Part shown: piece by piece, positions 1 through 63,550 of the stretch
Numbering within the stretch: position 1 is the stretch's first letter
Layout of the letters: each line of letters opens with the position of its first letter
Origin: a virus
DNA length: 64,000 bases
Reading direction: 5' to 3' (one strand)
Virus record (IMG/VR): IMGVR_UViG_3300032236_000643
Location: 6,411 to 70,410 of that record
The notes under the pieces: model-generated
What the model was told of the DNA's origin: nothing
Seen by the model: only the letters and a program-made list of their open reading frames with translations
The model's database searches: none
Program-made: the position numbers and the translations under genes

Positions 1-2
1 CT

Positions 3-860
3 CGTGTGGCTCGTGTGGCTCGTGTTCGTCGCGCCCAAGATGCTAAGCCAGCGGAAAGACCTGTTGAGAAGCCGGCTATGTCGCTTGCTGATGCTATGGC
101 TGCTTTGCGCCCTGAACGCGAGAACGTTGTTTTTCAACGTAATCCGATAACGCTTAATCCAATGATTGCAAATCCGATGATTGCAAATCCGACGGCGTCT
201 GAGGCTGTTAAGCCTGAACGTAAGGCGAAGCCTGTATCGGATGTGGTTGAAGAGAAACATTTGAAGTATGGGACGGCTCAGTCGATCCGTATGACGGATG
301 CTCACTTGCAGTACTTGTTGGATGAGGCTGCGTTCCAAGATATTTCAGGTAACAGCAAAGATTTCATCATTGAAATGTCTGCAAGTAAAAACGCGTTGAC
401 GATGCTGCGTGGATTGACGAAGGCATCGTTCAAAGATGCGTTTGAAGAGTACGCGAACCAGGGTGTTGAATCGTCGACGGTTGCAGAGTACAACTTTGAT
501 CCTGATGATGCGTCGAGTTATGTGGACGCGATGAAGCGTGCGAAGTCTCATCAAGAACAGTGGGAAAACCATACGGGTGATACGGGTAGAGCTGGTGGTG
601 CAAGCCATTCATATGGGTTGACCATTGGTTTCAATAAGATCACGTTGAATCAGGTGGATTATCCGCCTGATCCTGATGTGTTCCTCACGGGTGATGCGAA
701 AGCATTGGCCGCGTTGGAGCGTGGCGACAATGTCGTCATGCGGATTGTGGATCGTCAGCCTGTGCCGGAAACTCTGGCTGGCTTGTTTGGTATGCCTACG
801 AGTGCGTGGCGTGGGTTGGATGTTCCCGCGACAATTGTGATTGTTGAACTGCCGTACTAA
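3..860 (+). CDS. hypothetical head-module protein, 5' truncated by the window edge
   Basis: Frame open from position 3; RVA and NPMIA tandem repeats; lies directly upstream of the protease gene. Confidence 0.75.
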   Translation, partial: RVARVARVRRAQDAKPAERPVEKPAMSLADAMAALRPERENVVFQRNPITLNPMIANPMIANPTASEAVKPERKAKPVSDVVEEKHLKYGTAQSIRMTDAHLQYLLDEAAFQDISGNSKDFIIEMSASKNALTMLRGLTKASFKDAFEEYANQGVESSTVAEYNFDPDDASSYVDAMKRAKSHQEQWENHTGDTGRAGGASHSYGLTIGFNKITLNQVDYPPDPDVFLTGDAKALAALERGDNVVMRIVDRQPVPETLAGLFGMPTSAWRGLDVPATIVIVELPY

Positions 861-938
861 TTGGCCTCGTTTCACAGTGGCACTTGTTTCATCTGTTTGG
901 GATGATGAAAACAGGTGTAGCCCGCGTGGAGGTTAGTT

Positions 939-1637
939 GTGGATTCGTTAGATGTCGTGAAGGCACTGCGCGAAATCGATCCTGGTTTCGTTGCTTTGTG
1001 TGACACGTTGTTTGGTGCGAATGTTGATGCGGCTGACGTGTGGGCGTTCATGTATGACCGTGACGCGGTGTCGAAGATGAGTCCGACGCCGTCTGACGTG
1101 TCGTCGCCTGCTCCTGCGCCGGGTCGTAAGGGTGTGTTGATTCCGAAGCCTTTGCCGCCTGTTGCTCCGAGTGTGCCTGCGCCGAAGAAGCCGATGCCGG
1201 TGATGAAGTCTGATGATGAGCTGGCTGTTGTGTGGTCTGGCGAGTTTTCGAAGATGGATACGGATAAGCGTCAGGCGTTTGGTTGGGCGTCTGTTGTTGA
1301 GGTTGATGGTCAGCCTGTTGTTGATTTGCAGGGTGATTGGATTACGCCGGATGAGATTGAGAAGGCTGCGTATTCGTATGTGCGTAAGTCTCGTATTGGT
1401 GGGACTCAGCATCAGCGTGATGAGGATGGTGCGCCGGTTAAGGCTGGTGACATGATTGAGTCTTTTGTGGTGACCCCGGAGAAGATTGAGAAGATGGGTT
1501 TGCCGTCTGATTTCCCGGTTGGTTGGTGGGTTGGGTATCAGTATGACGATGATGCGACGTGGGCTGATATTAAAGAGGGTCGTAAGACTGGTTTCTCGGT
1601 TCATGGTCGTGGTAAGCGCGTCCCAGCGGAGATCTGA
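939..1637 (+). CDS. XkdF-like capsid maturation (prohead) protease
   Basis: Motifs FSKMDTDKRQAFGWASV, VDLQGD, ESF, GWWVG and GFSVHGRG are typical of the XkdF family; GGAGG RBS. Confidence 0.8.
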   Translation: MDSLDVVKALREIDPGFVALCDTLFGANVDAADVWAFMYDRDAVSKMSPTPSDVSSPAPAPGRKGVLIPKPLPPVAPSVPAPKKPMPVMKSDDELAVVWSGEFSKMDTDKRQAFGWASVVEVDGQPVVDLQGDWITPDEIEKAAYSYVRKSRIGGTQHQRDEDGAPVKAGDMIESFVVTPEKIEKMGLPSDFPVGWWVGYQYDDDATWADIKEGRKTGFSVHGRGKRVPAEI

Positions 1638-3019
1638 TGGCTGGGTTGAAAAACGAGCTTGATAACGCTCGCATGCAACGTGACTCACATAAGAGTTACC
1701 GTCAGGCTGATAAGAAAAGGCTTAAAGCTTTCAAGCATGAAGCGATGAGTGCTCGTGCTCTTTATGAATCAGAAGACGCTCGTCATCGTGGTTTCGCTCA
1801 AAGCCGTAACGCTGTTGCTCATGGTAAGCGCACAAACAGTGGGATGTATAACTATGAGAATCATGAAAGATACCGGTTGCTTGATCGTGCGGTGAATGGT
1901 CCTAGTTTGAAGGATCGCATCGAGCACAAGCGTCACCCTGAGCGTCGTCCTGGTGATCGTGAGAGGGCGCAGCAAGATCGGATTCTTGACCGGAATGGTC
2001 TTCGACATTATGACCCTAGCAACGACAAAATCGAGTTTAAGCAAGGGTATGTGTATCGGCCGTTGCGGTCTGCACCTAATGGAAAGTTTTACGCGATGGA
2101 GGGCGGGCACAGGCCGTTGCTTCCGGCGGATAAGAAGGTTCGTAAAGAGCTGTCGTCAGTAAAAGACGTCAGCAAAAAGCTTCCTTCATCGTTGCGCGCT
2201 ATTGGTACTGAGCACGTGCGTGGTATGACTGTCCCGAAGTTTAAGCCAACGTCGAATCCGTACATCAGATCACGTCAAATTGCGGCTGGTATGGGTTATC
2301 CAAAGGTCGTGCGTCAGGTTGAGGATAAGGCGGCGCACGAGGTTGGTACGTATGTTGATGCAATTGACACTGCTCGTACACATCCCGATCCGCACACGCG
2401 GCAAACGTTTGCTTCGTTGGTAAACCGCAAGACAGGCGGTCCTACGGGTGGCATGCCTGGTTCTATTTGGGACAGAAAAGAACTTCCTCTTGTAGTTCCC
2501 AAAGGGTATGACAAGAAAACTCCGTGGCAGCACATGCGGAGCGCAGCGGATAACGCTCGAAAAACTCAGATAGCGACGGCGCGTAGCGTTCGTGACGAGT
2601 CGCGTTCACGTTTGTCTAAAAGCGAGATTGACGCAATCGTGGATGTTGAGAAGAAGTTGTCACCGGAAAAACTTGCTCAAGCGAAAGCACGTGCGCGTGC
2701 AGCTGGGCGTCCGTATCCGAACGCGTACGACAACATGATTGCTGGTGGCGCTGATTGGCGTAAGGGCAGTCATGTGAAGAAGGAAGCCGAGTTCGAATTA
2801 CCTTCGTGGTATCAGGTTGGTATACCGCCAACGCGTGTTGAGTCAGATCCGATTAATCCGTTGGCGATGGCTGCTTCAAGCCGGATCATGCTTGATAATT
2901 CTGCGGCGTTGTTGGGTCGTAATTTGTCACGTAAGCAGAAGAAGCGTGCGGAGAAGAACGTGTATCAGATTGCTGGTGCGCGTGGTTTGTTGTATTCACC
3001 GTTGGGGATGTTGGGATGA
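1637..3019 (+). CDS. basic modular hypothetical protein (putative protease-processed head cargo)
   Basis: 460-aa ORF coupled by TGATG to the protease gene; very Arg/Lys-rich; VSKK, LSKS and VEKK motifs. Confidence 0.75.
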   Translation: MAGLKNELDNARMQRDSHKSYRQADKKRLKAFKHEAMSARALYESEDARHRGFAQSRNAVAHGKRTNSGMYNYENHERYRLLDRAVNGPSLKDRIEHKRHPERRPGDRERAQQDRILDRNGLRHYDPSNDKIEFKQGYVYRPLRSAPNGKFYAMEGGHRPLLPADKKVRKELSSVKDVSKKLPSSLRAIGTEHVRGMTVPKFKPTSNPYIRSRQIAAGMGYPKVVRQVEDKAAHEVGTYVDAIDTARTHPDPHTRQTFASLVNRKTGGPTGGMPGSIWDRKELPLVVPKGYDKKTPWQHMRSAADNARKTQIATARSVRDESRSRLSKSEIDAIVDVEKKLSPEKLAQAKARARAAGRPYPNAYDNMIAGGADWRKGSHVKKEAEFELPSWYQVGIPPTRVESDPINPLAMAASSRIMLDNSAALLGRNLSRKQKKRAEKNVYQIAGARGLLYSPLGMLG

Positions 3020-4476
3020 GCGAGATGCAACCGGGGAATGATCGTACTCAGCGTGCGATTACTGCTGGCTTGTCGGCTACTGGCGCTGCTGCTGGTGTGG
3101 GTGGTTTGGCGTATGCGGCTCATGATGCGGTGAATACGGTTCGTGCGGGTAAGAAGATTCCGTTGAAAACGAAGGCTTTGATTCCGCTTGAGACTGCGGG
3201 TCTTGCGGGTGAGGTCATGGCTACGAAAATTCTTCATAACGATGCGAAGCGTGATAAGCAACTTTCGGGCAACGTGGCGAAGCGAGATTTTTCTGCGGGT
3301 CAACGTCGTAAGTTGGCGTCCAAGGGTGATGCGTTGCCTGATGGTTCTTTTCCGATTAAAAACCGTTCGGATCTTGCTAACGCGAAACGGCTTGTCGGTC
3401 GTTCTAAGCATCCTGAGGAAGCACGTGAGTTTATTGCTCGTCGAGAATCGGAGTTGAGTAAAGCGATGTCGCGTATGGATGTTGATCCGAAGAATGGTAA
3501 GGGTCGCCGTATCGTTGTTGAGAATGCTGAGTCGGCGGAAGAGAACAAGGAAGAGAATTCTGTTCCTGTGACGCGTAAGAAGTTGCTTGCGATGGCTGTT
3601 GATGTTAAGAACGGCGCGTCGATAAAGGAGGAAGTAGGCAAGGGGTTAAATCCTTCACAACTTGAGGCTGCGACGCGGATCTATTCCGGTGGTGGCAACA
3701 AGGGAGCGCGAGCCTGGAAATTGCTACAACGGAATTCACGAGGGCCGCAAGGAAATGCAATTCTTGGATCGGAAAATAGCCACCGTCTTATGGCGGACAT
3801 GGCTGGCGCTGATCGGGTTCCACGTGCAATGCGCCGTCGAGGTTACACGCCAGACGATTTTTATCATCAGATTAGCCAGTCAACTCTGCGTCATGGTCGC
3901 GCATTACTTGAAAACCCTGATAAACCACGTGGGCTTAGTGCAGTCATGAAGTCCGAAGTGGACAAGGGTCTTCCTTCTGCTCTGCGCCCGGCACGTCTAA
4001 CCGCATCAGGTCTGCGTCCGCCAGGAAAGTCACGTATTTCTTTGATGGGTAACGATAGTTCTGTTCGTGACCGCATTATGGCTAACCACAATGGACGTTT
4101 GGCGGCTCGTGATCAGGAAGGTTCATCTTTCGAGGGCATGGTTTCTCGGTCACGTTCGCGGGACAAGTTTCCTCGACCATCCAAAATCGGTAAGGCTCGT
4201 TACTTCGATCCTGAAGCCGATCGTCAACGCCGTTTAGGTTTGTACTCTGGTGCTGCACTTGGTGGTGCTATCGCTGCGGGTTCTGTCGCGCATAGCAAGG
4301 GCGAGTTCGGTTTTGAACGCGAAGCAGGAGATGCTGCGAAGAAAATGTCACCAAAGTACACGTTGCGTGCGAACCGTAAAGGTGTCGCAGCTGCTGGAGC
4401 GTCACTTGGTTTGGCTGCGTTAGCAGCTGGAACGTACAAGCGTGGCATTTCGCATCGTAATCAGCCGTGGAACTAA
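3016..4476 (+). CDS. modular polyprotein with DUF6582-like module and Gly-rich hydrophobic peptides
   Basis: ATGA overlap with upstream gene; ALPDGSFPIKNRSDLANA motif; six hydrophobic-x-K motifs; hydrophobic Gly/Ala segments at both ends. Confidence 0.75.
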   Translation: MSEMQPGNDRTQRAITAGLSATGAAAGVGGLAYAAHDAVNTVRAGKKIPLKTKALIPLETAGLAGEVMATKILHNDAKRDKQLSGNVAKRDFSAGQRRKLASKGDALPDGSFPIKNRSDLANAKRLVGRSKHPEEAREFIARRESELSKAMSRMDVDPKNGKGRRIVVENAESAEENKEENSVPVTRKKLLAMAVDVKNGASIKEEVGKGLNPSQLEAATRIYSGGGNKGARAWKLLQRNSRGPQGNAILGSENSHRLMADMAGADRVPRAMRRRGYTPDDFYHQISQSTLRHGRALLENPDKPRGLSAVMKSEVDKGLPSALRPARLTASGLRPPGKSRISLMGNDSSVRDRIMANHNGRLAARDQEGSSFEGMVSRSRSRDKFPRPSKIGKARYFDPEADRQRRLGLYSGAALGGAIAAGSVAHSKGEFGFEREAGDAAKKMSPKYTLRANRKGVAAAGASLGLAALAAGTYKRGISHRNQPWN

Positions 4477-4536
4477 GTACCTAAAAAATCGTTAAGGTCT
4501 CTCGCATATACCTGTTTTCTGCTAGATCATGGGTAC

Positions 4537-5475
4537 ATGGGTAGAAAAGTCAATAAACTTTTTGACCTCGAATTCGACGAGGTTTCATCAGTCGACCGTC
4601 CTGCTAACCAGCACGGCCTGATTGCATTCTCCAAGTCTGCCAATGGTGTTGGCGTGTTTGACCTTGAGGATTCAATGACTGAAATTTACACAGAAACTGG
4701 TCTACCAGTTTACGAAGATGACCTCGAACACGGTGACGTTGTTTTCGATGAAGAAGGAAACGAGTACGTCTGGGTCATCCAAGACGAGATTGATTCCTCC
4801 GTCGATAAGGCAATGGCGATTACCGCTGGTGACGAAGCCGAAAACGTCGGATCAACTCTTGCTCGCCGTTCTGGCGGTCTTTTCAACAAGAAAGCAAAGA
4901 TTGCGGCCGGTGCTGTTGCCGGTGCATTGGGTGTCGGCGGTGCTGGCGCTTACATGATGAATCGAAAGGATAAAGACGTGGAGAAGTCGCTCGGCGACTC
5001 AGTCCTCGAGCAGCTCTCCAAGGCTGTTACCGAGGCTGACCGCGAAGCAGTTATCGCTAAGGCCCTTGACGAAGTTGAGGTCGCTAAGGCTCAGGCACAG
5101 GCCGCTCAGGAAGAGTTGGCTTACTTGCAGGATCAGCGTGTAACGGAGGCGTTCATTTCGAAGGCCGCTGAGTACAACCTTCCTGTCGCACCGGAGGTTT
5201 TCGGCCCGATTCTTAAGGCCGCAGCCACCGTTCTCACGGACGAAGAGTTGGACGTGCTTGATCACGTTCTGACTGCTGCTGGGGATGCGATCTATGAAGA
5301 GATCGGCATGTCCGGTGGAGCGTCTAACAGCATTCTCGACCATATCAATGGTTATGCCTCTGAGATGGTTACAAAGTCCGCTGGTGATTTCTCAATCGAG
5401 CAGGCCTCGACGGCGATGTTCACCGCTAACCCTGACGCGTATGACGCGTACATTGCAGAACAGAACGGACGGTAA
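4537..5475 (+). CDS. scaffolding protein with N-terminal protease-like EVSxVDxPAN segment
   Basis: Acidic and helical; lies before decoration and capsid genes; N-terminal DEVSSVDRPAN; C-terminal NPDAYDAY. Confidence 0.7.
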   Translation: MGRKVNKLFDLEFDEVSSVDRPANQHGLIAFSKSANGVGVFDLEDSMTEIYTETGLPVYEDDLEHGDVVFDEEGNEYVWVIQDEIDSSVDKAMAITAGDEAENVGSTLARRSGGLFNKKAKIAAGAVAGALGVGGAGAYMMNRKDKDVEKSLGDSVLEQLSKAVTEADREAVIAKALDEVEVAKAQAQAAQEELAYLQDQRVTEAFISKAAEYNLPVAPEVFGPILKAAATVLTDEELDVLDHVLTAAGDAIYEEIGMSGGASNSILDHINGYASEMVTKSAGDFSIEQASTAMFTANPDAYDAYIAEQNGR

Positions 5476-5480
5476 TTTCA

Positions 5481-6161
5481 ATGTCCTTTGAAGAGGGACT
5501 TAAGTCCATCTCCCTTCTCGCGGATTCCAGCCTGTACGTGTACACGGGTGTTCCTGGCGCGCTGGGTTCACCGTCTGGCTCGGGTAATCTTGGTCCTGCC
5601 GGCAACCTTTACCGTTTTGTGAAGCCCACTGGTTCTAAGACGGTTGGTCTGGCTGTGTCTAGCGCTGACTCTGTGATTGGTGTTCTTCAGAACAAGCCGC
5701 AGGTTAGTAATCAGGCTGCGACGGTTGCCATTCATGGTGTTTCCAACGTGGTTTCAGGTGCTGGTTCGTCTGGTAATGGCACAAACATTGCCGCTGGTGA
5801 TCTCGTGACTGTTGACAATTACGGTCGCGCTATCAAGGCTGCCACGCTCGCATCTGCTGTGACCCTATCGGGAAGCATCACGAAGTCAAGCGCGAACGTT
5901 ACGTACCCCGCTACAGCTAATGGTTTCGTCGTTGGTGACATTGTCACTGTCGCCGGTGCTACTAGTGCGGCGAATAACGGAACGTTTGTTGTTTCGGCTG
6001 CTGCCACGAACACGTTCACTGTGGTGAACGCGCTTGGTGTCGCTGAGACAGCTGCTGGTACTGCAACTAAGCAGAGCCTTAGCGGTCGAGTTGTTGGTGT
6101 TGCGCTTCAGGCGTCAAGCACTGTCAACGAGATCATCCCTGTTCTACTCCGAGTTTCCTAA
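5481..6161 (+). CDS. capsid decoration/cement protein with inserted beta domain
   Basis: YRFVK...VIGVLQNKP...AGDLVTVDNYGRA...VGVALQ pattern; directly upstream of the major capsid gene. Confidence 0.7.
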   Translation: MSFEEGLKSISLLADSSLYVYTGVPGALGSPSGSGNLGPAGNLYRFVKPTGSKTVGLAVSSADSVIGVLQNKPQVSNQAATVAIHGVSNVVSGAGSSGNGTNIAAGDLVTVDNYGRAIKAATLASAVTLSGSITKSSANVTYPATANGFVVGDIVTVAGATSAANNGTFVVSAAATNTFTVVNALGVAETAAGTATKQSLSGRVVGVALQASSTVNEIIPVLLRVS

Positions 6162-6190
6162 GCCGGGCTGAGCGAGAGAGGAAATAACAG

Positions 6191-7171
6191 ATGCCCACGC
6201 CCACTCAGTCCGATCTTCACGTAAACGTACCGCTGACTAATGTCAGCGTTGCGTACATGCAGTCGGCTAGTACCTATATCGCTGACAAGGTGTTCCCTAA
6301 GGTTCCTGTCAGCAAGCAGTCCAACATGTACTGGAAGTATTCGAAGTCCGATTGGCGTCGTTCTGACGTTAAGCGTCGCGCTCCGGGTACTGAGTCACCT
6401 GGTTCTGGTTGGAATCTGAACACGGATACGTATTTCGCGCACGTGTACGCGATTCACAAGGATATTGATGATCAGCTGCGTTCCAACGCTGATTCGAACT
6501 TCAACCTTGATCGCGATGCTACTGAGTTCATTACGAACCAGTTGCTGCTTCAGCGTGACATTGATTGGAATGCGAAGTACTTCACCACTGGTGTTTGGGC
6601 TACGAACAAGGTTGGTACGACTGACTTTGTTAAGTGGTCGGATGCTGGTTCTGATCCGATTTCGGATGTTGCGGATATCGTTGTTCAGTTCCGTAAGTTG
6701 ACTGGTTTTAAGCCGAACATTTGTGTCATGGGCGCGAGTGTTATGAAGGCTTTGAAGCAGCACCCGGACATCATCGATCGTATTAAGTACACGCAGAAGG
6801 GCATCGTTTCCGAGGATCTTATTGCGACCCTCTTCGATGTTGATGAGTTGTACACGTCGTATGCGACGCAGGCAACGGGTGTTCAGATGCCTGATGCTGT
6901 TGCTCAGGATGCGGCTGCTACGTTCGATTTCATCTCGGATTCAAAGAGCGTCTTGTTTGCGTACGCTCCGTCTGGTCCGTCTCTGATGACTCCGTCGGCT
7001 GGTTACACGTTCACGTGGAACGGTTACGTCGGTGGTAATAATCAGGGTATTAAGGTGAAGCGTTTCCGCATGGAGCATATTGCTGCTGATCGTATTGAGG
7101 CTGAGGCTACGTACGACATGAAGGTTGTTGCTTCGGATCTTGGTTACTTCTTGTCGCAGGTCGTGGCTTAA
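6191..7171 (+). CDS. major capsid protein
   Basis: 326 aa; LTNVSVAY, IADKVFPKVPV, WSDAGSDPI and ALKQHPDI motifs of gpE-like capsid proteins; strong RBS. Confidence 0.9.
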   Translation: MPTPTQSDLHVNVPLTNVSVAYMQSASTYIADKVFPKVPVSKQSNMYWKYSKSDWRRSDVKRRAPGTESPGSGWNLNTDTYFAHVYAIHKDIDDQLRSNADSNFNLDRDATEFITNQLLLQRDIDWNAKYFTTGVWATNKVGTTDFVKWSDAGSDPISDVADIVVQFRKLTGFKPNICVMGASVMKALKQHPDIIDRIKYTQKGIVSEDLIATLFDVDELYTSYATQATGVQMPDAVAQDAAATFDFISDSKSVLFAYAPSGPSLMTPSAGYTFTWNGYVGGNNQGIKVKRFRMEHIAADRIEAEATYDMKVVASDLGYFLSQVVA

Positions 7172-7173
7172 TC

Positions 7174-7458
7174 ATGGCGTATTACAAGACTCCTTTGGTT
7201 GTTAAGGCTGCTAAGGCCGTGACGTTGTATGACCGTAGTTCGTCTACGAATGTGACGTATGCCAAGGATCAGCAGTTGTCTTCGGCCCAGGCTAAGGCTT
7301 TTCCGAAGTTGGGTGTGTTGATCTCTAAGGGAATCTTGTATACGGCTGCGTCGTCTGGTGGTGCGGTGACTGATATTCAGGGTCGTCGTGTGAAGCCGGG
7401 TAAGACGACGATGATGAAGCCAACGCACGTGTCTTCGAGTGTGTTCAAGGTTTTGTGA
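7174..7458 (+). CDS. hypothetical protein
   Basis: Tightly packed after the capsid gene with matching codon usage. Confidence 0.6.
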   Translation: MAYYKTPLVVKAAKAVTLYDRSSSTNVTYAKDQQLSSAQAKAFPKLGVLISKGILYTAASSGGAVTDIQGRRVKPGKTTMMKPTHVSSSVFKVL

Positions 7459-7649
7459 TGCCTCCGAAGAAGAAGCTGGTGGACGGCCCGGTTTACCGGG
7501 CCGTCACACTGCTGACGGTTGGTGAGAAGGTTTTTAAGCCGGGGGATGTTGTTCCTGGTGCTGCGTCGTGGCCACGTGTTGATTCGTGGGTGCGTGCTCG
7601 TCGTATTGAACGTGTTGAGTCTGAGGTGGTGTCTGGTGGACGTGTCTAA
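7455..7649 (+). CDS. hypothetical protein
   Basis: GTGA overlap with upstream gene; small post-capsid ORF. Confidence 0.55.
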   Translation: MMPPKKKLVDGPVYRAVTLLTVGEKVFKPGDVVPGAASWPRVDSWVRARRIERVESEVVSGGRV

Positions 7650-8037
7650 GTCGTTGTCGGAGTTCGCTAATGAGGCGTTCGCTGCGACGTATCTTGAGGT
7701 CGCAAAGGCTTACAAGGATGAAAGTTTTACGAACAAGTATCTTGTTCGTCAGCCGGGTGAAACGAAGGCCATTTTGCGTGATCGTGGTGCTCAGGCCGGT
7801 GCTGCTGGATATGTTGCGGGACATGTCGGCGCGATGGGTTTGAATATGAAAGGTCACGGGAAGGCTGCGATAGCTGCTGACGCGGGTGCTCTTGGTAGCG
7901 GTATTTACGCCATGGTTCGTGGACATCGCGCGGCTAACAAATGGCGTACGGAGAACGGTTACGCGCCACGTCACGCGATTACCGGTATGCCGAAGAAGGA
8001 TAAGAAGTCTGACAGCACGCCTGACGGCGAAGACTAA
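7636..8037 (+). CDS. small membrane-peptide cargo-like protein
   Basis: GTG start after GAGGTGG; VSKS and VAKA motifs followed by two Gly-rich hydrophobic segments and a basic tail. Confidence 0.6.
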   Translation: MDVSKSLSEFANEAFAATYLEVAKAYKDESFTNKYLVRQPGETKAILRDRGAQAGAAGYVAGHVGAMGLNMKGHGKAAIAADAGALGSGIYAMVRGHRAANKWRTENGYAPRHAITGMPKKDKKSDSTPDGED

Positions 8038-55587: not shown

Positions 55588-56289
55588 ATGACGCCTAACC
55601 CTCGCTACGGTAATGGCGCTGCTGTCGGGCGGCGTCCTTCTTCGTCTGAGAAGAAGCGAAATGCTGCGTATGGGGTTGCTGGTGCGGGCGCAATCACTGC
55701 TGGTGTTGGCTATGGTGCTGCTCAGTATGGTCGTAAGCGCGTTGCTGGGGCTAAGGGCGCTGACGACCAGCGTTTATCTCATTTGAATGATCGTCGTGAA
55801 ACGAAGATGACGACCGCGAATGTTGCTGAGCAGAACGCTAAGGCGTCTATGCGTCGTGCTGGTCGGGCGTCTCAAGCGCGATCTGATATTGAAAACTGGA
55901 AGCAGGGCCGCGGTCCTGAGACCAAGCAGATCCCCAATCCTGAACAGCATCCGAATACTCGGGGCGGTAAGCAGTGGTACAACGCGAACCGTGTCCATCC
56001 AGGTGACGTGACGCGTATCGCTGACACGATGGATTATTTGGCGAATGAACAAAAGCATCATCTTGGTGAGCAGGTATCGCATCAGGCTACGGCTGACAAG
56101 ATTCGCAATAAAGAACTCCCTGATCTTGAGGACAAGATTAAGAATTTCAAGCCGACTGCACCTGTTGTTGAGGCTAAGTATGGGCGTGTGGCTCGAACTG
56201 GGCGTCGAGGCATGATCGTGGGTGGTCTGACTGCTTTGGGTGGTCTTGTGGCTGCTGAACGTATGCGTCATACGCATAGGGCATCCTGA
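55588..56289 (+). CDS. basic protein with two Gly-rich hydrophobic segments
   Basis: TGATG-coupled to the portal gene; AYGVAGAGAITAGVGYG and IVGGLTALGGLVA. Confidence 0.7.
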   Translation: MTPNPRYGNGAAVGRRPSSSEKKRNAAYGVAGAGAITAGVGYGAAQYGRKRVAGAKGADDQRLSHLNDRRETKMTTANVAEQNAKASMRRAGRASQARSDIENWKQGRGPETKQIPNPEQHPNTRGGKQWYNANRVHPGDVTRIADTMDYLANEQKHHLGEQVSHQATADKIRNKELPDLEDKIKNFKPTAPVVEAKYGRVARTGRRGMIVGGLTALGGLVAAERMRHTHRAS

Positions 56290-57848
56290 TGGCTGATGAT
56301 GTGACATTGCGTGCCAGGCAGGGCACGTATGACCAGTCGAACACGTCGTCTGATGATGTGTTGTTGAAGGAGTCCGAGCGGGCTGGCGCATTTCAGGAAC
56401 TTGGTGCTCTTGGTTTACGCCGCGCAGCTGGTTACATCGATGAAGAGTTCTTACCCCAGATTCGTGGGCGTAAGGGCGTTGAAGTTTTCAAGGAGATGTC
56501 GCAGAACGATCCCATCGTGTCTGCGCTGTTGTTTTCCATTGACCGATTGTTGCGTAACGTTGATTGGCGTGTTGATCCGGCTGGTAAGTCTAAAGAGGAT
56601 GCGAACGCTGCCAAGTTGTTAGAGACGTGTATGGAAGATATGTCTCACACGTGGGATGACTTCATTTCTGAGGTTTTGTCCATGTTGGTGTATGGCTGGT
56701 CTTGGCATGAGATTGTGTATAAGCGTCGTGGTGGTCCGTGGGCGTCTGATGGGCGTTCTCGTTCGCAGTACAACGATGGCATGGTGGGTTGGCGGAAGAT
56801 GCCGATCCGTTCACAGGACACCATGTTGCGTTGGGTGTTTAACGATGATGGGTCAACGAAGGGCATGGTGCAGATCGCACCGCCGCGTTATCAGACGATC
56901 GCTATTCCGATTGAGCGTTCTGTTTTGTTCCGTTATCGGCATTACAAGGATTCGCCTGAGGGCGTGTCGATGTTGCGTGGCGCGTATCGGCCGTGGTTTT
57001 TCAAGAAGCGCATTGAAGAGTTTGAGTCCATTGGTGTTGAGCGGGATCTTGCGGGTTTGCCTTTGGTGAAGGTTCCTGCGGAGATGCTGCGTGCGAAGCC
57101 TGGTACTGATCAGGCTAAGAGTGTGGACGCGTTTAAGAAGCTTGTTAAGTCTGTTCGTCGTAATGATCAGGAGGGAATGGTTTTCCCGTCTGCGTACGAT
57201 CAGGAGACGAAGCAGCCGTTGTATTCGTTTGAGCTTCTTGGCGGCGGTGGTGCTCGCCAGTTCAACACGTCTGAGATCATTCAACGGTATGAGCAACGCA
57301 TTTTGATGACTGTGTTGGCTGATTTCATTCTTGTGGGCCATGAGGGTAGTGGCTCGTATTCGATGCATACGGATAAGACGGGTATTTTCCGTACGTCGTT
57401 GAATTCGATTACTCAGTCGATCGCGGACACGTTGAACAGGCATGCTGTTCCGAAGTTGTTTTTGGCTAATGGGTGGAAGCCTGCTGAGTTGCCGAAGATT
57501 GTTCCGGATGATGTGGATTCTCCGGATATTACGGTGTTGTCGTCGTTCATGTCGTCTATGGCATCTATGGGTGTGACGTGGTTTCCTGACGGTAATTTGG
57601 AGAACTTTTTGCGTTCGGCTGCTCGGTTGCCTGAGTTGGATGATGACCAGTTGGAGCAGCGTCGTCAGATGCAGATGCGGTCGGAGGCGACACAGTTCGC
57701 TGAGGCCAATTCGTTGTATGTGCAAACGGAGAACTCGTTGCAGGCTGCTATGCGTGGCGAAATGCCGGGTGAGCAGGCGACAGCTCAAGATAAGAAATCG
57801 GCCGATAAGGCTCAGTCTTCGAAGAAGGCTGGTGGGTCGCGTGAGTGA
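56289..57848 (+). CDS. portal protein (DUF935-like)
   Basis: ELG..G, EEFLPQ.RG, YGWSWHEIVYK, SPEG.S.LR, ERDLAGLP and GSYS motifs. Confidence 0.9.
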   Translation: MADDVTLRARQGTYDQSNTSSDDVLLKESERAGAFQELGALGLRRAAGYIDEEFLPQIRGRKGVEVFKEMSQNDPIVSALLFSIDRLLRNVDWRVDPAGKSKEDANAAKLLETCMEDMSHTWDDFISEVLSMLVYGWSWHEIVYKRRGGPWASDGRSRSQYNDGMVGWRKMPIRSQDTMLRWVFNDDGSTKGMVQIAPPRYQTIAIPIERSVLFRYRHYKDSPEGVSMLRGAYRPWFFKKRIEEFESIGVERDLAGLPLVKVPAEMLRAKPGTDQAKSVDAFKKLVKSVRRNDQEGMVFPSAYDQETKQPLYSFELLGGGGARQFNTSEIIQRYEQRILMTVLADFILVGHEGSGSYSMHTDKTGIFRTSLNSITQSIADTLNRHAVPKLFLANGWKPAELPKIVPDDVDSPDITVLSSFMSSMASMGVTWFPDGNLENFLRSAARLPELDDDQLEQRRQMQMRSEATQFAEANSLYVQTENSLQAAMRGEMPGEQATAQDKKSADKAQSSKKAGGSRE

Positions 57849-57849
57849 C

Positions 57850-58098
57850 ATGTTGGACGCTAAGGCACGTTCAGCAGCTGCTGGTGCGTGTGCATTGTTG
57901 GCTGCTAATGATGAGGCGTCAGCTCGGGAAATGTTGCGTTTGTATCTTGCTGATGCGATGCCACAGGTTGGTCCGATGTTGGCGATGCAGCGTTTGGTGT
58001 CCGCGATGTTGCATGTGGCTGTGAAGACAACGCCTGATCCGGTGAAGTTTCGTAAGGTTGCTGAGGCGCTTGCTATTTCGGATGGTGAGTGGGTGTGA
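57850..58098 (+). CDS. hypothetical protein
   Basis: Fills the gap between portal and the next gene with start/stop overlaps. Confidence 0.6.
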   Translation: MLDAKARSAAAGACALLAANDEASAREMLRLYLADAMPQVGPMLAMQRLVSAMLHVAVKTTPDPVKFRKVAEALAISDGEWV

Positions 58099-60200
58099 AC
58101 GAGAATCGTCGTAATGCCGCTCAGTATGTGGGTGCTGGTGCTGCGTTGTTGGCGGCGAGCGCTGGTGGTAACGAGTTGTTGAATACTCGTTTGAAGCGTC
58201 GTATGCCTGATGTGAAGCGTCCTGGTGTTATTGCGTCTGCTGCTCGTTCGGTGGCTGGTAGGCCGAATGGTTTTGTGTCGGGTATTCATGTTCCGCATAT
58301 CGCTGGTAAGGCGGGTGTGCGGGGTGCGCAGGTGTCTGCGTTGCCGTTGTTGGCTGCTGGTGTGAAGCGGTTTGTGACGGGTGAGGATACGCGTAAGTTG
58401 GATGTGAAGTCTGATGTGGTGCGTCCTGTTGTTGAGCATGCGACGTATCAGGATCAGGTGAGGCGTGGGGATAAAAGCATTGCTAAGGCGAAATATGATC
58501 CGTTCTCTCGGTCGTGGAGCGTAACGAAGCCTCTTCTCGCGGATTTGAATAGAACGAAGGCTCGCGATGTGCGCACGGGCGCTGGTGCGAAGAAGTTCGT
58601 TGCTGAGAATCGTCATCTTGCTTCGTTTCGTCATGGAAACAAGTTGGAAGTTATTCGACCGGACATGCCGTCGCAGCGATTACGCATGATTGATTCCAAG
58701 TACGTGTATCGGTACAACCCGCGTGGTGAAGCTGAAGGCTTTAAGAAGTCTTTGACTGAGTCTGATACGAAACGTTTGGATCGGCATAAGAAGGCTGGCA
58801 CGTTACTGTCCTTATCGTCTGGCACGTTGGGTTTGGCTGCGTTGGGTACGCGCGCTCCTGCTGTTGCTCGGTCGTTGAACGGTAAGGGTGTTAAGGGCTT
58901 GTCTCGTTTAGCGTCGCACGAGGCGAAGGCAACATCGTTGTCTAACACGTTGGGTGTAACAGCGTTAGGTGTGGGTTCTGCTGGTTCGTTTAATTATGCG
59001 GCTCAGCAACGCTTGGAACGCAAACGTGATGCTGTCAGTAAAGCGCAGATAATTCCTGGTATTTACCGCCCGATCATGCACATCAGCGAAGAGACCAACA
59101 AACTTGAGACAAGCCGACCTGTAGTTGATGCGTTACGCGCACGACTTAAGGGCGCTCCGGTTTATCACGGTGGAACATCTGCGCGTGTCAACAATTTGCG
59201 ACGCGGTAAGTCTGTTGACATGAAAACTCATATGTTTGGCGACAAGTCTGTTAAAGGTTTGTGGACGACGCCTCGTCGCGATATGGCGAGTCAATATGCC
59301 GTTTCGGGACGCACTCCTGAGAATTTTCATAAGTATGGCGAAGAAACCATGTCTAGCGAAGCAGTCGCGCGCACTAAGAAGGGCAAGGTTGCTGAGTACA
59401 ACATGAAGGGCGTGTGGCCAGAGGCAGGTTGGGTACACGAAGATAAATCTGCATTTGTTTATAAGCCTGAAGACTTAGATGGGCGCTTAGTTCGTGTTCA
59501 TGGTCAAAAAAGAACACGCGATGCTGAGACGCGTCTGCGTGGAACAGAAGATGTCAGCCGCCAATCGACTTTTAACCAGTCCGGTGTTGGCAAAAGTATG
59601 CCTACGTATGGTTGGTTGAAGCGCACTGGTGAGAAAGTCCGCATCATGCGACCACATGGAACCAGTGGTCATTTTCTCGTTGATTCACCACGCGGCACGT
59701 TGATTGCTCACCGTGATGAGATGCGTTTTGCACCAGCGAAACAGACACGTCTTTCGCCAGCATCGCAACGCGCAACTTCGGCTCGTGCTAAGCAGCCAGA
59801 ACAGTTGTCGATGTTTGAAAAGTCATTTTTGAGTCGTTACGGGGATCGTATTTCACCGAACGCTGAGGCTGGTTACCGTCACTTGCGTACGCAGCGCAAT
59901 GAGAATGTTGCGTCTGCGATTGGTAATGGCTCGTTGGCTGGGTTGTCTGCTGGCGTACTAGCTCATGAGGGGCGTCACATGTCACGACCTGCTGCTGGTC
60001 TTACTGCTGCTGGTGGTTTGGCAGCTGCGTATTCGTCGTTGAATGGTGCGCGTACAGCGAAGCGGCGTCAGATAAGTATGAAGAAGATTGAGCAGAAAGC
60101 CCATGCCCGTGCCGTGTTGGGCTTGTATGGACCGGATCGTGGTAAGTCACCGGTTGATATGACGTCTGCTCGTGCTAAGAAGAGTGGAGCAGCATCATGA
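58089..60200 (+). CDS. modular polyprotein: membrane peptides plus ADP-ribosyltransferase-like module
   Basis: IAKA, FKKS, VSKA, VGKS and FEKS delimiters; VYHGGT..GLWTTP...ASQYA. Confidence 0.75.
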   Translation: MGVNENRRNAAQYVGAGAALLAASAGGNELLNTRLKRRMPDVKRPGVIASAARSVAGRPNGFVSGIHVPHIAGKAGVRGAQVSALPLLAAGVKRFVTGEDTRKLDVKSDVVRPVVEHATYQDQVRRGDKSIAKAKYDPFSRSWSVTKPLLADLNRTKARDVRTGAGAKKFVAENRHLASFRHGNKLEVIRPDMPSQRLRMIDSKYVYRYNPRGEAEGFKKSLTESDTKRLDRHKKAGTLLSLSSGTLGLAALGTRAPAVARSLNGKGVKGLSRLASHEAKATSLSNTLGVTALGVGSAGSFNYAAQQRLERKRDAVSKAQIIPGIYRPIMHISEETNKLETSRPVVDALRARLKGAPVYHGGTSARVNNLRRGKSVDMKTHMFGDKSVKGLWTTPRRDMASQYAVSGRTPENFHKYGEETMSSEAVARTKKGKVAEYNMKGVWPEAGWVHEDKSAFVYKPEDLDGRLVRVHGQKRTRDAETRLRGTEDVSRQSTFNQSGVGKSMPTYGWLKRTGEKVRIMRPHGTSGHFLVDSPRGTLIAHRDEMRFAPAKQTRLSPASQRATSARAKQPEQLSMFEKSFLSRYGDRISPNAEAGYRHLRTQRNENVASAIGNGSLAGLSAGVLAHEGRHMSRPAAGLTAAGGLAAAYSSLNGARTAKRRQISMKKIEQKAHARAVLGLYGPDRGKSPVDMTSARAKKSGAAS

Positions 60201-63200
60201 CACGACTTGTTGGTTTGATTGAGAAGGCGTTCGCGGATGATCCGTTGGGCGCTGCGATCTTGCTTGATGAAGCGATGTGTTTGTACGCGTCTGATTTGAT
60301 GGATGAGTATGACTCGCAGATCCAGTCAGCGATTGCGCGTGATACGCATCGTCGTATCAATATTGCGAAGTCAGCGTTGGGTCGCCAGTACGTAGAGACC
60401 ATTAGTAAGGGCGTATATCCATCTCGTGATGTGCGTCAGACTGCTGAATGGTTGGCTGGTTTGTCCGCATATGCAGACGTGGTCAGCAAGGGCGTGATGT
60501 TGGAGTTCTGGGGTAAGAAGCAGGATAAGCGTTACGTTGCTCGTGATTCTGCTGGCCGGTTCACCAAGGTTGTGGATACGAATCGTTCATCGTCAGCTAC
60601 GGGCGCACCGTCCTCGAAATTATCGCCTGCACTGTCCAGTAATGGGCATGTGAGTAATGGTGCGTTGTCTGAGTCGGCTAAAGAGAACGAGTCGACTGTT
60701 AACCGTCACCAGGCACAGTACGAGCAAACGGATCAGCATATTCGTGACTTGTATCGTATGTTTCAGGGCAACTCTAAGGGTGTTGAGGTTGAGATTAATC
60801 GCCTCAAGGAGGGTAATGTCGCTGACCCGTTAGTGTTCCCGTTGATTCAGGGTCGTGATGGGTTCCCGGCTGCGGTTGCATCTCAGATTAACCCGTTGGA
60901 TGAGACGATTTTGTCTGTTGGCGTGAAGGCTAAGAATGACGCTTCACGTGAAACGCAGGAACGTATTGCTCGGTTCAATTCGTTTGGTGTCGTGTCGCCC
61001 AAAATGGCTGATCAGCAGTCGTTGAAAGATGCGTTTGGTTTTTCGTCTGCCACGGAGAGTGGCACGGACGAGTTTTTCCGGCGTATGCGTGGTATTTCGG
61101 GTGTTTTGAATGCGACGGGTAATCAGAAGGCGGCTGCGTTCGCTGAACTGGTTGGTACGCATGGTGCTGAGGCTGAGAAGATTATTGGCCCGTATGTTCG
61201 TCAGTCTGCGTATCGGTATCGGGGTACGGAGAAGTCTCCTGATAAGGAATTGTTAGAAGAATTTTCATCTCAGGATATGAGAAGCGTGCAGGCAGGGCTT
61301 GTCCCAACTGACGCGTTTGGTGTGGTTGCTGGTTCGGCTAAGTATCGTGCGAAGGACCGTCCGTCAAAGGATCAGTTCAAGCTTGAGGTGCAGTCGGATA
61401 CGGCTGCCCAATTCTTGATGAGAACATTGCCGAACGATCTGTTCACAGCCAAGTTATCTGAGAAGTCAGGTCACGTTCTCCCATCTCAGGGTGTGATCAT
61501 CAACGCTGACGGTCAGGTAATCACGCAGGCTGTCGGGTATGCAGACGATCACTATTTACCGTTTGATTTGAAGAACCTTGCTGCGCTTCGCGGCGGTCAG
61601 TACGTGCGCACTCGCGTATCTGGCGGTCTTACGGGTGAGGACATGTATGCGGCTGTCCAGTCTGGTGCTCGTATGGCAACTGTTGTCTCATCGTCTGGAG
61701 TGTTTTCCATCGAGTTTGATCCGAACTTCCGTGGAGCACGCGGTAACTCAGATAAGGCACGCCAAATTTACGGCCGCTATTTGAAGATCCTTGATGCGGT
61801 TGACCAATCAGGTTTGTACTTGAAAGACATTGACCCGTCGATCAAGGACGATATTAAGCGTACTGCTGCTCAGTACTATCCCGGTGATAGTGCAGATGCT
61901 AAGGCGTTGCGTGAGAACTACGAGAACACGCAGATCGAACAGAAGCGCCAAGAAGCCCGTGATGGCATTGATGTGGCTGCTCTTGAGGCTGAGGCTAAGC
62001 AGGCTGCATCGAAGGAACCTGGTTTCGCGCAACGGTCAGCTGCGGATCAAGCTCGTCTGGTTGCTGATTTTTATGATGAGTTGAAGGGTGAACGGCAGCG
62101 TGAGCAAGTTCAAGAACTTGCGTTGAACACTGCTGGGTACGGTAAGGCTTTGGAAACGTTGCAGCAGCAGTTCCCGTATTTCATTCGTAAGGTGTCGTAT
62201 CAGCCGTTGGCTGGTCGTGCTAACGATCCTGATGGTGTTGGCTTCTTGGATGCTTTGGGGTTGAAGAACACTCTTTCGATGGGTCGTAACCGGGTTAATA
62301 CGAAGGATTCGGGTTACGTGTCTCCTGGTGGGTTGCGTCCGCGTTCGGTTCAGTCTGGTTTTTATGAGTCGGCGACGACGACAATTCCTTCGCCTAAACG
62401 GCCTGGTAAGGCTGATGAGTCTACTGCGGAGCGGCAGGGAGCTCAGGGCGGTGAGACTCCTAAGGCCGCGGGCACTGGGGATGCTGGTTCGGCGGGCGGC
62501 GATGTGTCTCCAGTGCCCTCTACGTCTGATTCACCGTTGTTGAAGCGGCTAGCCATGTATGAACCAGCATCTAAAAAAGAGGTTAATGAGTCAGCTCGTG
62601 TTTTGTTTGACGCGTTGCAAACGCTGCCGAAACAATATTCACTGGGCGGCGACATGGGCGAGAGTGCAGCGTTGGCTGACGAAAACCCTAAATCAATTGT
62701 TGAATACCTGTTCACAAACCCAGCTAAGTTGAAAGATCTTGCAACCAATCCGAAGGTCGTATCTGCTTTGAGCGATCCGGGTGTTGTTCGTGGCGCGTTC
62801 CTAAATATTTACGGATTTTCAACTCTTGATGTGACCATAAACGAAAGCAGTGGTATTTCGTCACAATTCAATAATGCAAAAACGCAAAATGAAGCTGTTG
62901 ATTTTGTTGTACAGGCTGCTGCAAAGATTGCTATGAACGCATCGTTGATGTCACCTTTCAGCAGTCCGTCGTCTGATCCGTATGCGGTTGCTGAACTTCC
63001 TCGTCCTGATCAAGAAATCATGCGCCTAGACACGTTAGACAAGATGAAAGCGTGGATGTCACAGGACAGTAACAAGAATGTGGCACGTTTGGCTGGTGAA
63101 CTTGGTGAAAATCCAGCACCCGTTGTAAAACAATCTGTCGAGCTGCTGAAGAAGATGAAAGAGAAGTCTTCTGATGCTGTGAGCGAGTCTGCTGGTAAGC

Positions 63201-63550
63201 CAGAGGAGTACGCGTCACGTCTTGCCACGCTCATTGGCGTGAATCCTGAAACGCTGGCGATGACGTTGGGTACTGATGTGACGCCGGCTACTGTGCAACC
63301 ACTGTTGTTGGATCGTCGTGCTGCTGATTTGCAGCGTGCATGGTCATTGGCTCAAGCAGGCCGTGTTTTGAGCATCATTGATGATCCGTCTGGTGGTGGT
63401 TCCCCAAAAGTTCCACACCCGCAAAGCGGGGTGATGAAGTCACTGGCGCTCTCGTCCCGACGGGTGGACGTCTTGGCGATGGAGCACCCGTTAACGCGTC
63501 GAGTGATGTTGAACAAATCGTTAGGGAAGCCGCTGCTGAGCCAGATCTAA
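60197..63550 (+). CDS. large head-associated protein with RDxxGRF motif and degenerate JAB-like domain
   Basis: 1117 aa; IEKA, IAKS, ISKG and VSKG motifs then ARDSAGRF; ATGA overlap with upstream gene. Confidence 0.75.
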   Translation: MTRLVGLIEKAFADDPLGAAILLDEAMCLYASDLMDEYDSQIQSAIARDTHRRINIAKSALGRQYVETISKGVYPSRDVRQTAEWLAGLSAYADVVSKGVMLEFWGKKQDKRYVARDSAGRFTKVVDTNRSSSATGAPSSKLSPALSSNGHVSNGALSESAKENESTVNRHQAQYEQTDQHIRDLYRMFQGNSKGVEVEINRLKEGNVADPLVFPLIQGRDGFPAAVASQINPLDETILSVGVKAKNDASRETQERIARFNSFGVVSPKMADQQSLKDAFGFSSATESGTDEFFRRMRGISGVLNATGNQKAAAFAELVGTHGAEAEKIIGPYVRQSAYRYRGTEKSPDKELLEEFSSQDMRSVQAGLVPTDAFGVVAGSAKYRAKDRPSKDQFKLEVQSDTAAQFLMRTLPNDLFTAKLSEKSGHVLPSQGVIINADGQVITQAVGYADDHYLPFDLKNLAALRGGQYVRTRVSGGLTGEDMYAAVQSGARMATVVSSSGVFSIEFDPNFRGARGNSDKARQIYGRYLKILDAVDQSGLYLKDIDPSIKDDIKRTAAQYYPGDSADAKALRENYENTQIEQKRQEARDGIDVAALEAEAKQAASKEPGFAQRSAADQARLVADFYDELKGERQREQVQELALNTAGYGKALETLQQQFPYFIRKVSYQPLAGRANDPDGVGFLDALGLKNTLSMGRNRVNTKDSGYVSPGGLRPRSVQSGFYESATTTIPSPKRPGKADESTAERQGAQGGETPKAAGTGDAGSAGGDVSPVPSTSDSPLLKRLAMYEPASKKEVNESARVLFDALQTLPKQYSLGGDMGESAALADENPKSIVEYLFTNPAKLKDLATNPKVVSALSDPGVVRGAFLNIYGFSTLDVTINESSGISSQFNNAKTQNEAVDFVVQAAAKIAMNASLMSPFSSPSSDPYAVAELPRPDQEIMRLDTLDKMKAWMSQDSNKNVARLAGELGENPAPVVKQSVELLKKMKEKSSDAVSESAGKPEEYASRLATLIGVNPETLAMTLGTDVTPATVQPLLLDRRAADLQRAWSLAQAGRVLSIIDDPSGGGSPKVPHPQSGVMKSLALSSRRVDVLAMEHPLTRRVMLNKSLGKPLLSQI

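Follow-up and report, generated by a model that had tools for sequence, protein, structure and literature searches.

The 64,000-base stretch of DNA analysed here (the window) spans bases 6411-70410 of the 70,410-base virus record IMGVR_UViG_3300032236_000643, which carries direct terminal repeats of 123 bases. The record belongs to an uncultured, siphovirus-like phage, a long-tailed phage encoding a major tail protein and a tape measure protein of 2047 amino acids (aa). Our subject is a pair of adjacent genes in its head module, open reading frames ORF1 (1637..3019, plus strand) and ORF2 (3016..4476, plus strand), whose products are basic mosaic proteins divided by short lysine-containing sites, and which we propose to be substrates of the prohead protease encoded directly upstream. 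Read across the terminal repeat, the head module consists of a Mu-type portal gene (56289..57848, plus strand; PF06074, E 1.3e-32; phrog_113, E 1.3e-87), the genes of the large proteins p703 and p1117, an AAA-type ATPase gene, three fibre-like genes and the p781 gene. These are followed by the XkdF-type protease, ORF1, ORF2, an acidic scaffold-like protein, a decoration-like protein and a major capsid protein of the lambda-E type (6191..7171; phrog_1005, E 2.6e-87). ORF1 and ORF2 lie between the portal gene (PF06074) and the capsid gene (phrog_1005), a synteny that is kept in relatives.

The start of ORF1 overlaps the stop codon of the protease gene (TGATG), and that of ORF2 overlaps the stop codon of ORF1 (ATGA). 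As the initial annotation had stated, both products are very basic: the ORF1 protein (460 aa) contains 19.6% K+R and has an isoelectric point (pI) of 10.2, the ORF2 protein (486 aa) contains 18.1% K+R and has a pI of 10.6, and each carries a net charge of +38. ORF1 opens with module A (aa 1-180; 1637..2176; net charge +17), which ends in VSK and is found only in the near-identical relative P0049; its sole Pfam match at E<=10, to HEPN_Apea, has an E of 0.14 and was rejected as not meaningful. Module B (aa 181-328; 2177..2620) begins with KLPSSLR and aligns to P0051 from residue 178, P0051 having a different module order; a Pfam search with this module gave no hit. A small module with a RAAGRPYPNAYDNM core (aa 340-382; 2654..2782; phrog_34011, E 2.3e-9) lies between VEK/K and HVKK/E (a slash follows the lysine of each site). 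It has sites on both sides in P0050, P0052 and the L002/L003 and L004 proteins, in otherwise unrelated contexts, and is N-terminal in P0051, with one site after it. The protein closes with a conserved C-terminal core (aa 383-460; 2783..3016), delimited by alignment of relatives, in which conservation is confined to the last ~80 aa. Of 12 relatives, 11 have [IV]-x-K-[GASK] immediately before this core. Stand-alone genes of 94-107 aa encode the core as well, preceded by a short leader (~11-25 aa) that ends in [IV]-x-K-[GA]; ORF1 and ORF2 of the window, unlike these stand-alone genes, carry long N-terminal cassettes. A search for short homologous proteins matching the ORF1 core returned none.

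ORF2 is built along similar lines, with a conserved part at each end. Its N-terminus (aa 1-89; 3016..3282) is a Gly/Ala-rich helical hairpin that ends in VAK, for which AlphaFold2 (AF2) predicts helices at residues 9-43 and 50-102 with a predicted local distance difference test score (pLDDT) of 64-85 over residues 11-80. Its C-terminus (aa 394-486; 4195..4473) is an anchor with invariant alignment columns, running from RYFDPEADRQRR to RNQPW and modelled with a pLDDT of 69-83 over residues 401-480, the mean for the whole protein being 60.5. Between them, a 'DGSFPI' module (aa 90-149; 3283..3462) extends from VAK/R to LSK/A, with BLAST alignments ending at 89 and 150. It is weakly DUF6582-like, in that the homologous module of P0022 carries PF20223; a Pfam search with the window's own copy gave no hit. 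When ORF2 was compared with a phage database by tblastn, only a module at residues 74-160 matched, in nine records, and in some of these the match lies under features annotated as capsid maturation protease or portal protein; megablast with window positions 1-8000 and tblastn with ORF1 found no match in that database. The next module (aa 150-209; 3463..3642) contains a conserved NG-x-G-R-R-I peptide, ends in VGK and recurs in P0004, to which residues 143-209 are 79% identical, and in P0002, P0003, P0006 and P0020, in all four of which motif sites flank it. It is followed by an orphan module (aa 210-312; 3643..3951; net charge +9), which ends in VMK and is mostly modelled at a pLDDT below 50, and by a module that starts with GLPSALR and ends in IGK (aa 318-393; 3967..4194); a Pfam search with residues 210-393 gave no hit. 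In the ORF2-like protein P0029 (L022:7359-8300) we also noticed two Cys-rich cassettes of ~30 aa, CPKC...CPEC and CPNC...CPMC, each bounded by motif sites, that look like zinc ribbons.

The initial annotation had described the boundaries in ORF1 and ORF2 by the pattern [VILF]-x-K-[SAGKR], here called the loose motif, and had listed nine sites. All nine stand at the nucleotides given, namely VSKK at 2168, LSKS at 2612, VEKK at 2645, VAKR at 3274, LSKA at 3454, VGKG at 3634, VMKS at 3943, VDKG at 3958 and IGKA at 4186, and one further match within module B, VPKG at 2495, had been overlooked. HVKK/E, whose lysine codon (P1, the residue before the proposed cut) occupies 2780-2782, falls outside the pattern and is likely a variant site. 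The near-identity of two module starts in different genes, VSK-KLPSSLR and VDK-GLPSALR, was likewise borne out, and an LPS-x-LR start also follows a site in relatives: IDKG-LPSALR (P0011), VNKK-LPSALR (P0051), VEKG-LPSVLR (L015) and VTKG-LPSALR (L003). The reported recurrence of the motif in the scaffold holds for ten sites, eight of them listed previously and two (FNKK and ILKA) new, and in the protease for four, among them VMK/S.

To what extent do these sites exceed chance? In 500 within-protein shuffles, the scaffold (10 sites against 1.46 expected, p 0.002) and the protease (4 against 1.27, p 0.03) stood out. Ten head-internal proteins pooled contain 50 sites against 27.4 expected, a number reached by none of the 500 shuffles, and 40 against 26.6 (4 of 500 shuffles) if the scaffold is left out; the 55 other proteins contain 56 against 44.1 (17 of 500), and three shell proteins 2 against 2.7. 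With the strict motif, [VIL]-x-K-[SA], the head-internal proteins of this genome have 31 sites against 11.4 (0 of 500) and the rest of the genome 24 against 19.6 (87 of 500). The enrichment in head proteins over the rest that the initial annotation had put forward as a check is thus present in the pooled head-internal proteins, to which the scaffold contributes much, and fails for ORF1 (4 sites against 3.02, p 0.36) and ORF2 (6 against 3.21, p 0.09) taken singly.

Counting in families gave a clearer picture. Here the strict motif was counted in non-redundant sets, with three controls: Arg in place of Lys, the motif reversed, and its spacing shifted by one. It is most enriched in 13 scaffolds (91 sites against 8.4 expected, 10.8x), followed by 8 proteases (20 against 4.6, 4.4x), 12 p781 relatives (36 against 13.8, 2.6x), 57 ORF2 relatives (180 against 68.8, 2.6x) and 10 ORF1 relatives (15 against 7.9, 1.9x). 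It is not enriched in capsid proteins (1 against 3.4, 0.29x), decoration proteins (4 against 4.2, 0.95x) or p158 proteins, and it reaches just 1.6x in the p1117 family, so that p1117 may lie outside the processed set. The three controls remain at 0.78-1.03x in the ORF2 family. The counts were repeated on a replication set of 120 further cluster representatives (50% identity), which had played no part in defining the pattern, and the strict motif was again in excess, with 253 sites against 123.2 (2.05x) and controls at 0.62-0.94x; 212 against 104.5 remain when the anchor and its adjoining site are removed. The z-scores attached to these two results, 14 for the ORF2 relatives and 12.8 for the replication set, overstate independence because the family sequences are mutually related. 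On the basis of the controls in the family and replication sets, we rejected chance or composition as the origin of the motif.

These counts also bear on the possibility that the motif is no cleavage site at all and instead reflects composition, the surface periodicity of helices in Lys/Ala-rich proteins or some other conserved contact. In its favour, ORF1 and ORF2 of the window do not exceed their shuffles, the scaffold sites occupy conserved alignment positions, and the reversed pattern is itself enriched 3.4x in scaffolds (29 against 8.5), which indicates that some helical periodicity adds to the scaffold signal. The forward motif nevertheless reaches 10.8x there as against 3.4x, and in the ORF2 family the forward motif alone is in excess. 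Moreover, Arg does not substitute for Lys (0.47-0.90x across the family and replication sets), and the motif also occurs beyond helices, in linkers modelled with low confidence: K89, K209, K312 and K317 of ORF2 lie in ten-residue blocks whose mean pLDDT does not exceed 53, and K149 and K393 at the edges of confident helices. Given in addition that the motif marks junctions and short N-terminal leaders, we regard a non-cleavage origin as very improbable.

The relation of the motif to module junctions can be followed in several ways. First, among 2501 internal BLAST ends in 67 family proteins, counted with no composition correction or low-complexity filter, 16.1% are no more than 2 aa away from a site, where 5.5% would be expected (2.9x), the controls giving 1.1-1.35x. 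In ORF2 itself, ends cluster (three or more) at residues 80, 88, 142, 151, 209, 373 and 391, the motif lysines being residues 89, 149, 209, 312, 317 and 393; four of the seven clusters (88, 151, 209 and 391) are within two residues of a site, and those at 80, 142 and 373 are unmatched. Second, of 72 new family members, 61 have the loose motif immediately before the C-terminal anchor, in the form of 24 different tetrapeptides; by eye, lysine occupies this place in all 72 rows, the P2 residue before it being free to vary. Third, the p703-like proteins of L002 and L003 are ~97-100% identical except for one cassette, which is replaced exactly from VTK/G to the next K/[RS] site. The initial annotation had asked whether modules swap precisely at the motif; the L002/L003 cassette does, and most BLAST ends lie elsewhere.

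Cassette exchange takes place in a setting of otherwise well conserved genes. In the protein collection ORF2 has 48 relatives, nearly all of which share single modules only, and ORF1 has four; the closest relatives are P0002 and P0049. A profile of the ORF2 family, run against 1.84 billion representatives, recovers 327 clusters when E<=1e-3 is required, and 210 and 103 clusters at cut-offs of 1e-10 and 1e-30. An alignment-based scan yielded 22 viral loci, and a metagenome scan seven more, the closest relative not being among them; a locus scan with ORF2 alone found no relative, and one with ORF1 alone found three loci, sharing one small module. Of the 22 viral loci, 20 have a scaffold homologue immediately after an ORF2-like gene, and in the 13 loci in which homologues of both protease and scaffold were detected, variable genes lie between them. 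ORF1-like genes measure 94-435 aa and ORF2-like genes 212-598 aa (the start of one 742-aa call, in L013, is uncertain). Comparisons between loci give identities of 67-98% for the capsid protein, 51-96% for the protease and 43-89% for the scaffold, as against 7-39% for ORF2, 0-85% for ORF1 and 11-62% for p781. In the closest pair of loci the capsid proteins are 98% and the proteases 96% identical, and the ORF2 proteins 39%.

The candidate agent of cleavage is the XkdF-type enzyme, the sole protease of the head module (232 aa; 939..1637, plus strand). Its residues 102-227 match PF14550 (Peptidase_S78_2) with 62.9 bits, above the cut-off of 24, at an E of 3.9e-17; head maturation protease families in PHROG match the protein too, and the stretches DMH..R and GFS[IV]HG are conserved in its relatives. 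Its VMK/S site directly precedes the catalytic domain. Another 27 proteins are fusions in which an ORF2-type, targeting-like hairpin precedes an XkdF catalytic domain; 24 of them have at least one site between the two parts. On the minus strand opposite the protease gene (948-1688) there is a 246-aa Arg-rich open frame, most probably a side effect of composition, which was not treated as a gene.

The densest substrate would be the scaffold-like protein (312 aa; 4537..5475, plus strand; 10 motif sites), so called from its position and composition since it has no Pfam or PHROG name. About nine positions of its alignment carry the motif in most of the 13 members, and its predicted fragments measure 9-58 aa and mostly have a pI of 4-5. 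Two features of this protein may be mentioned in passing. A hypervariable stretch (window 4801-4992, aa ~92-150) between two conserved motif positions contains, in most relatives, a Gly/Ala-rich hydrophobic segment resembling an inserted cassette. In addition, the scaffold N-terminus (4537-4640, aa 1-34), ...EFDEVSSVDRPANQHGLIAFSK/S, closely resembles EISIVDRPANPECPFSIAK/S, the end of the protease part in P0030, a relative that is an HK97-type (PF04586) protease-scaffold fusion; a piece that elsewhere belongs to the protease may thus sit at the scaffold N-terminus here.

We conclude that the XkdF-type protease probably cuts after the motif lysine, the evidence being indirect. The motif is specifically enriched, is densest in the scaffold and lies at junctions and upstream of conserved cores; it shows no enrichment in the proteins that have to remain intact; sites separate hairpin from catalytic domain in 24 of the 27 fusion proteins, and VMK/S immediately precedes the catalytic domain of the window protease; and cassettes swap between near-identical genes with the motif at their flanks. 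This reading also agrees with a statement that the S78 relatives HK97 gp4 and T5 pb11 cleave after lysine (PMC13517437; this and the other publications cited here are drawn on from excerpts). A signal-peptidase or lipobox site was rejected, as the residues do not fit.

Several points nevertheless weigh against cleavage at the motif. ORF1 and ORF2 show no significant excess on their own, and two sites, IEKA and VRKS, fall within the catalytic domain of the protease itself. The scaffold motif could persist by conservation alone, given that its sites occupy conserved alignment positions. About 84% of BLAST ends are more than 2 aa from any site, the excess falls to just 1.7-1.9x when ends are clustered, and 11 of the 72 anchors lack the loose motif; the uncorrected junction test and the inflated z-scores belong on this side as well. 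Finally, the statement on lysine cleavage by S78 proteases is second-hand, a literature search found nothing in print on XkdF-type specificity and, on a lysine cleavage consensus, nothing usable beyond that statement, and the excerpt of the D3 capsid paper gives no site rule.

Taking these observations together, we favour a model, to which we assign a probability of roughly 0.6, in which ORF1 and ORF2 are internal polyproteins loaded into the prohead and cut after the motif lysine, the acidic scaffold peptides leaving and the cationic cassettes staying with the DNA. The conserved cores, that is the ~80-aa C-terminal domain of ORF1 and the hairpin and ~93-aa anchor of ORF2, would load the protein into the prohead, and the lineage-specific basic cassettes of ~40-180 aa would sit on or between them, each bounded by [VIL]-x-K and a small or basic residue. 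Once the prohead is assembled, the protease would cut after the site lysines, freeing its own catalytic domain, chopping the scaffold into acidic peptides of 9-58 aa able to exit the shell, and dividing ORF1 and ORF2, and probably also p703 and p781, into small products that are strongly basic. Their positive charge would tend to hold these products on the packaged DNA, and at infection some may exit together with it. Among the fragments predicted for ORF1, ORF2 and p703, those exceeding 11 aa have a pI of 8.3-11.9, and several are Gly/Ala-rich.

The same arrangement could arise if ORF1 and ORF2 served assembly only, as auxiliary scaffold or core proteins whose cassettes are filler or propeptides, cut and expelled before or during packaging. 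ORF1- and ORF2-like genes indeed lie between the protease and scaffold genes wherever a related locus spans the interval, their conservation is limited to the cores and their cassettes have no recognisable function; in the Salmonella phage SPN3US, moreover, propeptides are generally expected to exit the head, and long ones are cut repeatedly (PMC10052503). However, the fragments in question, with a pI of about 10-12, carry a strong positive charge where the scaffold pieces are acidic, and one would expect them to bind DNA, not to be displaced by it; at 60-180 aa they exceed the scaffold pieces in size; and filler would not be expected to swap as discrete cassettes with a site at each end. We therefore consider a purely structural role unlikely.

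If the prohead-loading model is correct, it could perhaps be extended to a general rule: any short basic module placed in an anchor protein with a [VIL]-x-K/[SA] site at either end would be carried into the prohead by the hairpin or anchor, cut free by the XkdF-type protease, kept on the DNA and delivered, across at least 327 clusters. We offer this extension tentatively, as something that could be true but that we would not bet on. Were it to hold, the cleavage motif would double as a recombination-tolerant joint of a polymorphic cargo locus, and the arrangement could be reused for loading foreign proteins into capsids.

What, then, are the modules? In 57 ORF1 and ORF2 relatives Pfam identified no enzyme, toxin or DNA-binding domain, the only matches being DUF6582 and three glycine-zipper or membrane families, in one member each. 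Ten p703- and p781-like proteins, and ORF1, ORF2, p703, p781 and p1117 of the window, matched no Pfam family, and NCBIfam found none in eight head proteins of the window. A Foldseek search with the ORF2 model gave no match at E<=1e-3 in BFVD or PDB, and ESM Atlas yielded nothing usable for residues 1-328 of ORF1, its own model of the protein having a pLDDT of 0.46. The modules are orphan, basic and in part glycine-zipper-like, a composition suggestive of neutralising the charge of DNA and of glycine-zipper activity at membranes rather than of enzymatic roles.

The initial annotation had gone a step further and proposed that the released modules form a polymorphic library of effectors delivered to the host. 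Such effectors could be anti-defence or host-takeover proteins, injected in analogy to the T4 internal proteins and Alt or to polyvalent proteins. That effectors can be packaged in phage heads and injected is an established idea (PMC5512222), and the hypervariable cassettes beside conserved assembly genes, their exchange between near-identical genes and the small size and basic charge of the pieces, suited to retention with DNA and to passage through the tail, would all fit. The closest approach to an effector domain is found in p703 (58089..60200, plus strand), a very basic mosaic protein of 703 aa (pI 10.8; 5 motif sites) whose six predicted fragments all have a pI of 9.9-11.2. Its residues 319-502 (59043-59594), between AVSK/A and GVGK/S, match ART-PolyVal (PF18760) at an E of 0.0084, a sub-threshold score of 17.3 bits against a cut-off of 31.2. 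The AF2 single-sequence model of this module is unusable (pLDDT 34.7), phmmer against PDB sequences gave no hits with it, and a scan of viral contigs found no relatives. The region preceding it, aa 221-318, also lies between two sites and is the part common to the L002, L003 and L004 proteins. Against an effector library stands the lack of any enzyme, toxin or anti-defence domain in the Pfam searches (57 plus 10 relatives and the window proteins), in the NCBIfam search of window proteins and in the Foldseek and ESM Atlas comparisons; in addition, many modules are Gly/Ala-rich or low-confidence helices that suit structural or biophysical roles equally well. We consider this proposal doubtful, and about equally likely as a role in assembly only. 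Of the interpretation originally given, then, the part that stands is that the motif behaves like a protease site, by its enrichment, its position at junctions and its density in the scaffold; the effector library is unsupported.

Other proteins of the head module share some of these properties. The p781 gene (genome 4925-7270, plus strand) lies directly 5' of the protease gene and encodes a polymorphic head protein of 781 aa, the C-terminal 285 aa of which fall in the window (3..860); its conservation in relatives is limited to the first ~230 aa, it has five loose motif sites, and it has no Pfam or PHROG hit. The p1117 gene (60197..63550, plus strand; 1117 aa) is conserved in relatives. On the other side, 3' of the capsid gene, a 133-aa basic Gly/Ala-rich protein is encoded at 7636..8037 (plus strand), from a GTG start after GAGGTGG, with a leader of ~25 aa that ends in EVAK/A. 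In this region (window 7174-8037; L005, L008, L023 and L024) small Lys-rich proteins differ between relatives and have 2-6 sites each, that of L024, for example, measuring 352 aa with six sites; these proteins may belong to the same processed set as ORF1 and ORF2. Between the ATPase and p781 genes (genome 521-4922; L027), the three fibre-like genes encode proteins of 784 aa, 206 aa (collagen-like, with tail-fibre PHROG hits) and 471 aa; in relatives p1117 is followed by a short gene and then by p781, without the three fibre-like genes.

Should the motif indeed be the cut site, it would provide a readable "cleavage code" for head proteases of the XkdF/S78 type, and the mature virion proteins of a large group of uncultured phages would become predictable from sequence. 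It would also follow that essential head genes can tolerate hypervariable cassettes because these are excised after assembly, and that the conserved hairpin and anchor might be used as capsid-loading tags.

The internal-protein locus of phage T4 is hypervariable. The proposed system resembles that of the T4 proteins IPI-III and Alt with the protease gp21 in that a short conserved part would direct proteins into the prohead, where the protease would trim them at a consensus of the three-residue type that riddles the scaffold core, here proposed from sequence, and in that the basic products would stay with the DNA. A capsid-targeting sequence and delivery are described for the T4 internal proteins (PMC9024508), and gp21 cuts at I/L-x-E (PMC12991175). 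In the present case the protease is of the XkdF/S78-like family PF14550, P1 is Lys and not Glu, and the pattern [VIL]xE[SA] shows no enrichment (scaffold family 1.39x, ORF2 family 0.81x); furthermore, the conserved parts are an N-terminal hairpin and a C-terminal core or anchor in place of the ~10-aa leader, and several unrelated cassettes are strung together in one polypeptide. The giant phages phiKZ, 201phi2-1 and SPN3US (gp245) likewise use one prohead protease on many head and ejection proteins with a short motif, in SPN3US at 14 sites in nine substrates, with long propeptides cut several times (PMC10052503). Their enzyme, however, is T4-gp21-like, cuts after Glu and mostly removes N-terminal propeptides rather than separating cassettes, and the SPN3US excerpt (PMC10052503) describes no cassette exchange at sites.

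Polyvalent proteins (Iyer, Burroughs, Anand, de Souza and Aravind, 2017; PMC5512222) are comparable as multi-module proteins encoded in the head and packaging neighbourhood and proposed to travel with the DNA. Their processing by embedded peptidases has been proposed, assemblin-like (prohead-protease-type) peptidases at the C-termini of some of them being the likely agents (PMC5512222). ORF1 and ORF2 share their portal-terminase head-module location, but polyvalent proteins are defined by several recognisable enzymatic or DNA-binding domains, of which Pfam finds none here, the protease of the present phage is a separate gene, and the PMC5512222 excerpt mentions no junction cleavage motif. As to MuF-based polymorphic toxins, which have an N-terminal MuF domain, the MuF (SPP1 gp7-like) family is absent from the Pfam and PHROG output for the head-module proteins tested. 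Closest in chemistry are HK97 gp4 and T5 pb11 (MEROPS S78), which are stated at second hand to cut after lysine and to degrade the scaffold or delta domain to small pieces (PMC13517437); the HK97-type fusion P0030 is itself full of the same motif. As far as the sources go, these two enzymes are known to act on the capsid delta domain, on the portal and on themselves, and not on cargo polyproteins, and the window protease belongs to PF14550, not PF04586.

Taken together, we argue that what appears distinctive in this locus is the combination of protease family, P1 residue, anchor and hairpin with strings of exchangeable, orphan and basic, apparently non-enzymatic cassettes, along with an anchor family that can be defined. 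If the proposed processing is correct, the picture of protease-processed internal proteins drawn from T4 and phiKZ would be widened to ordinary-sized, siphovirus-like phages.

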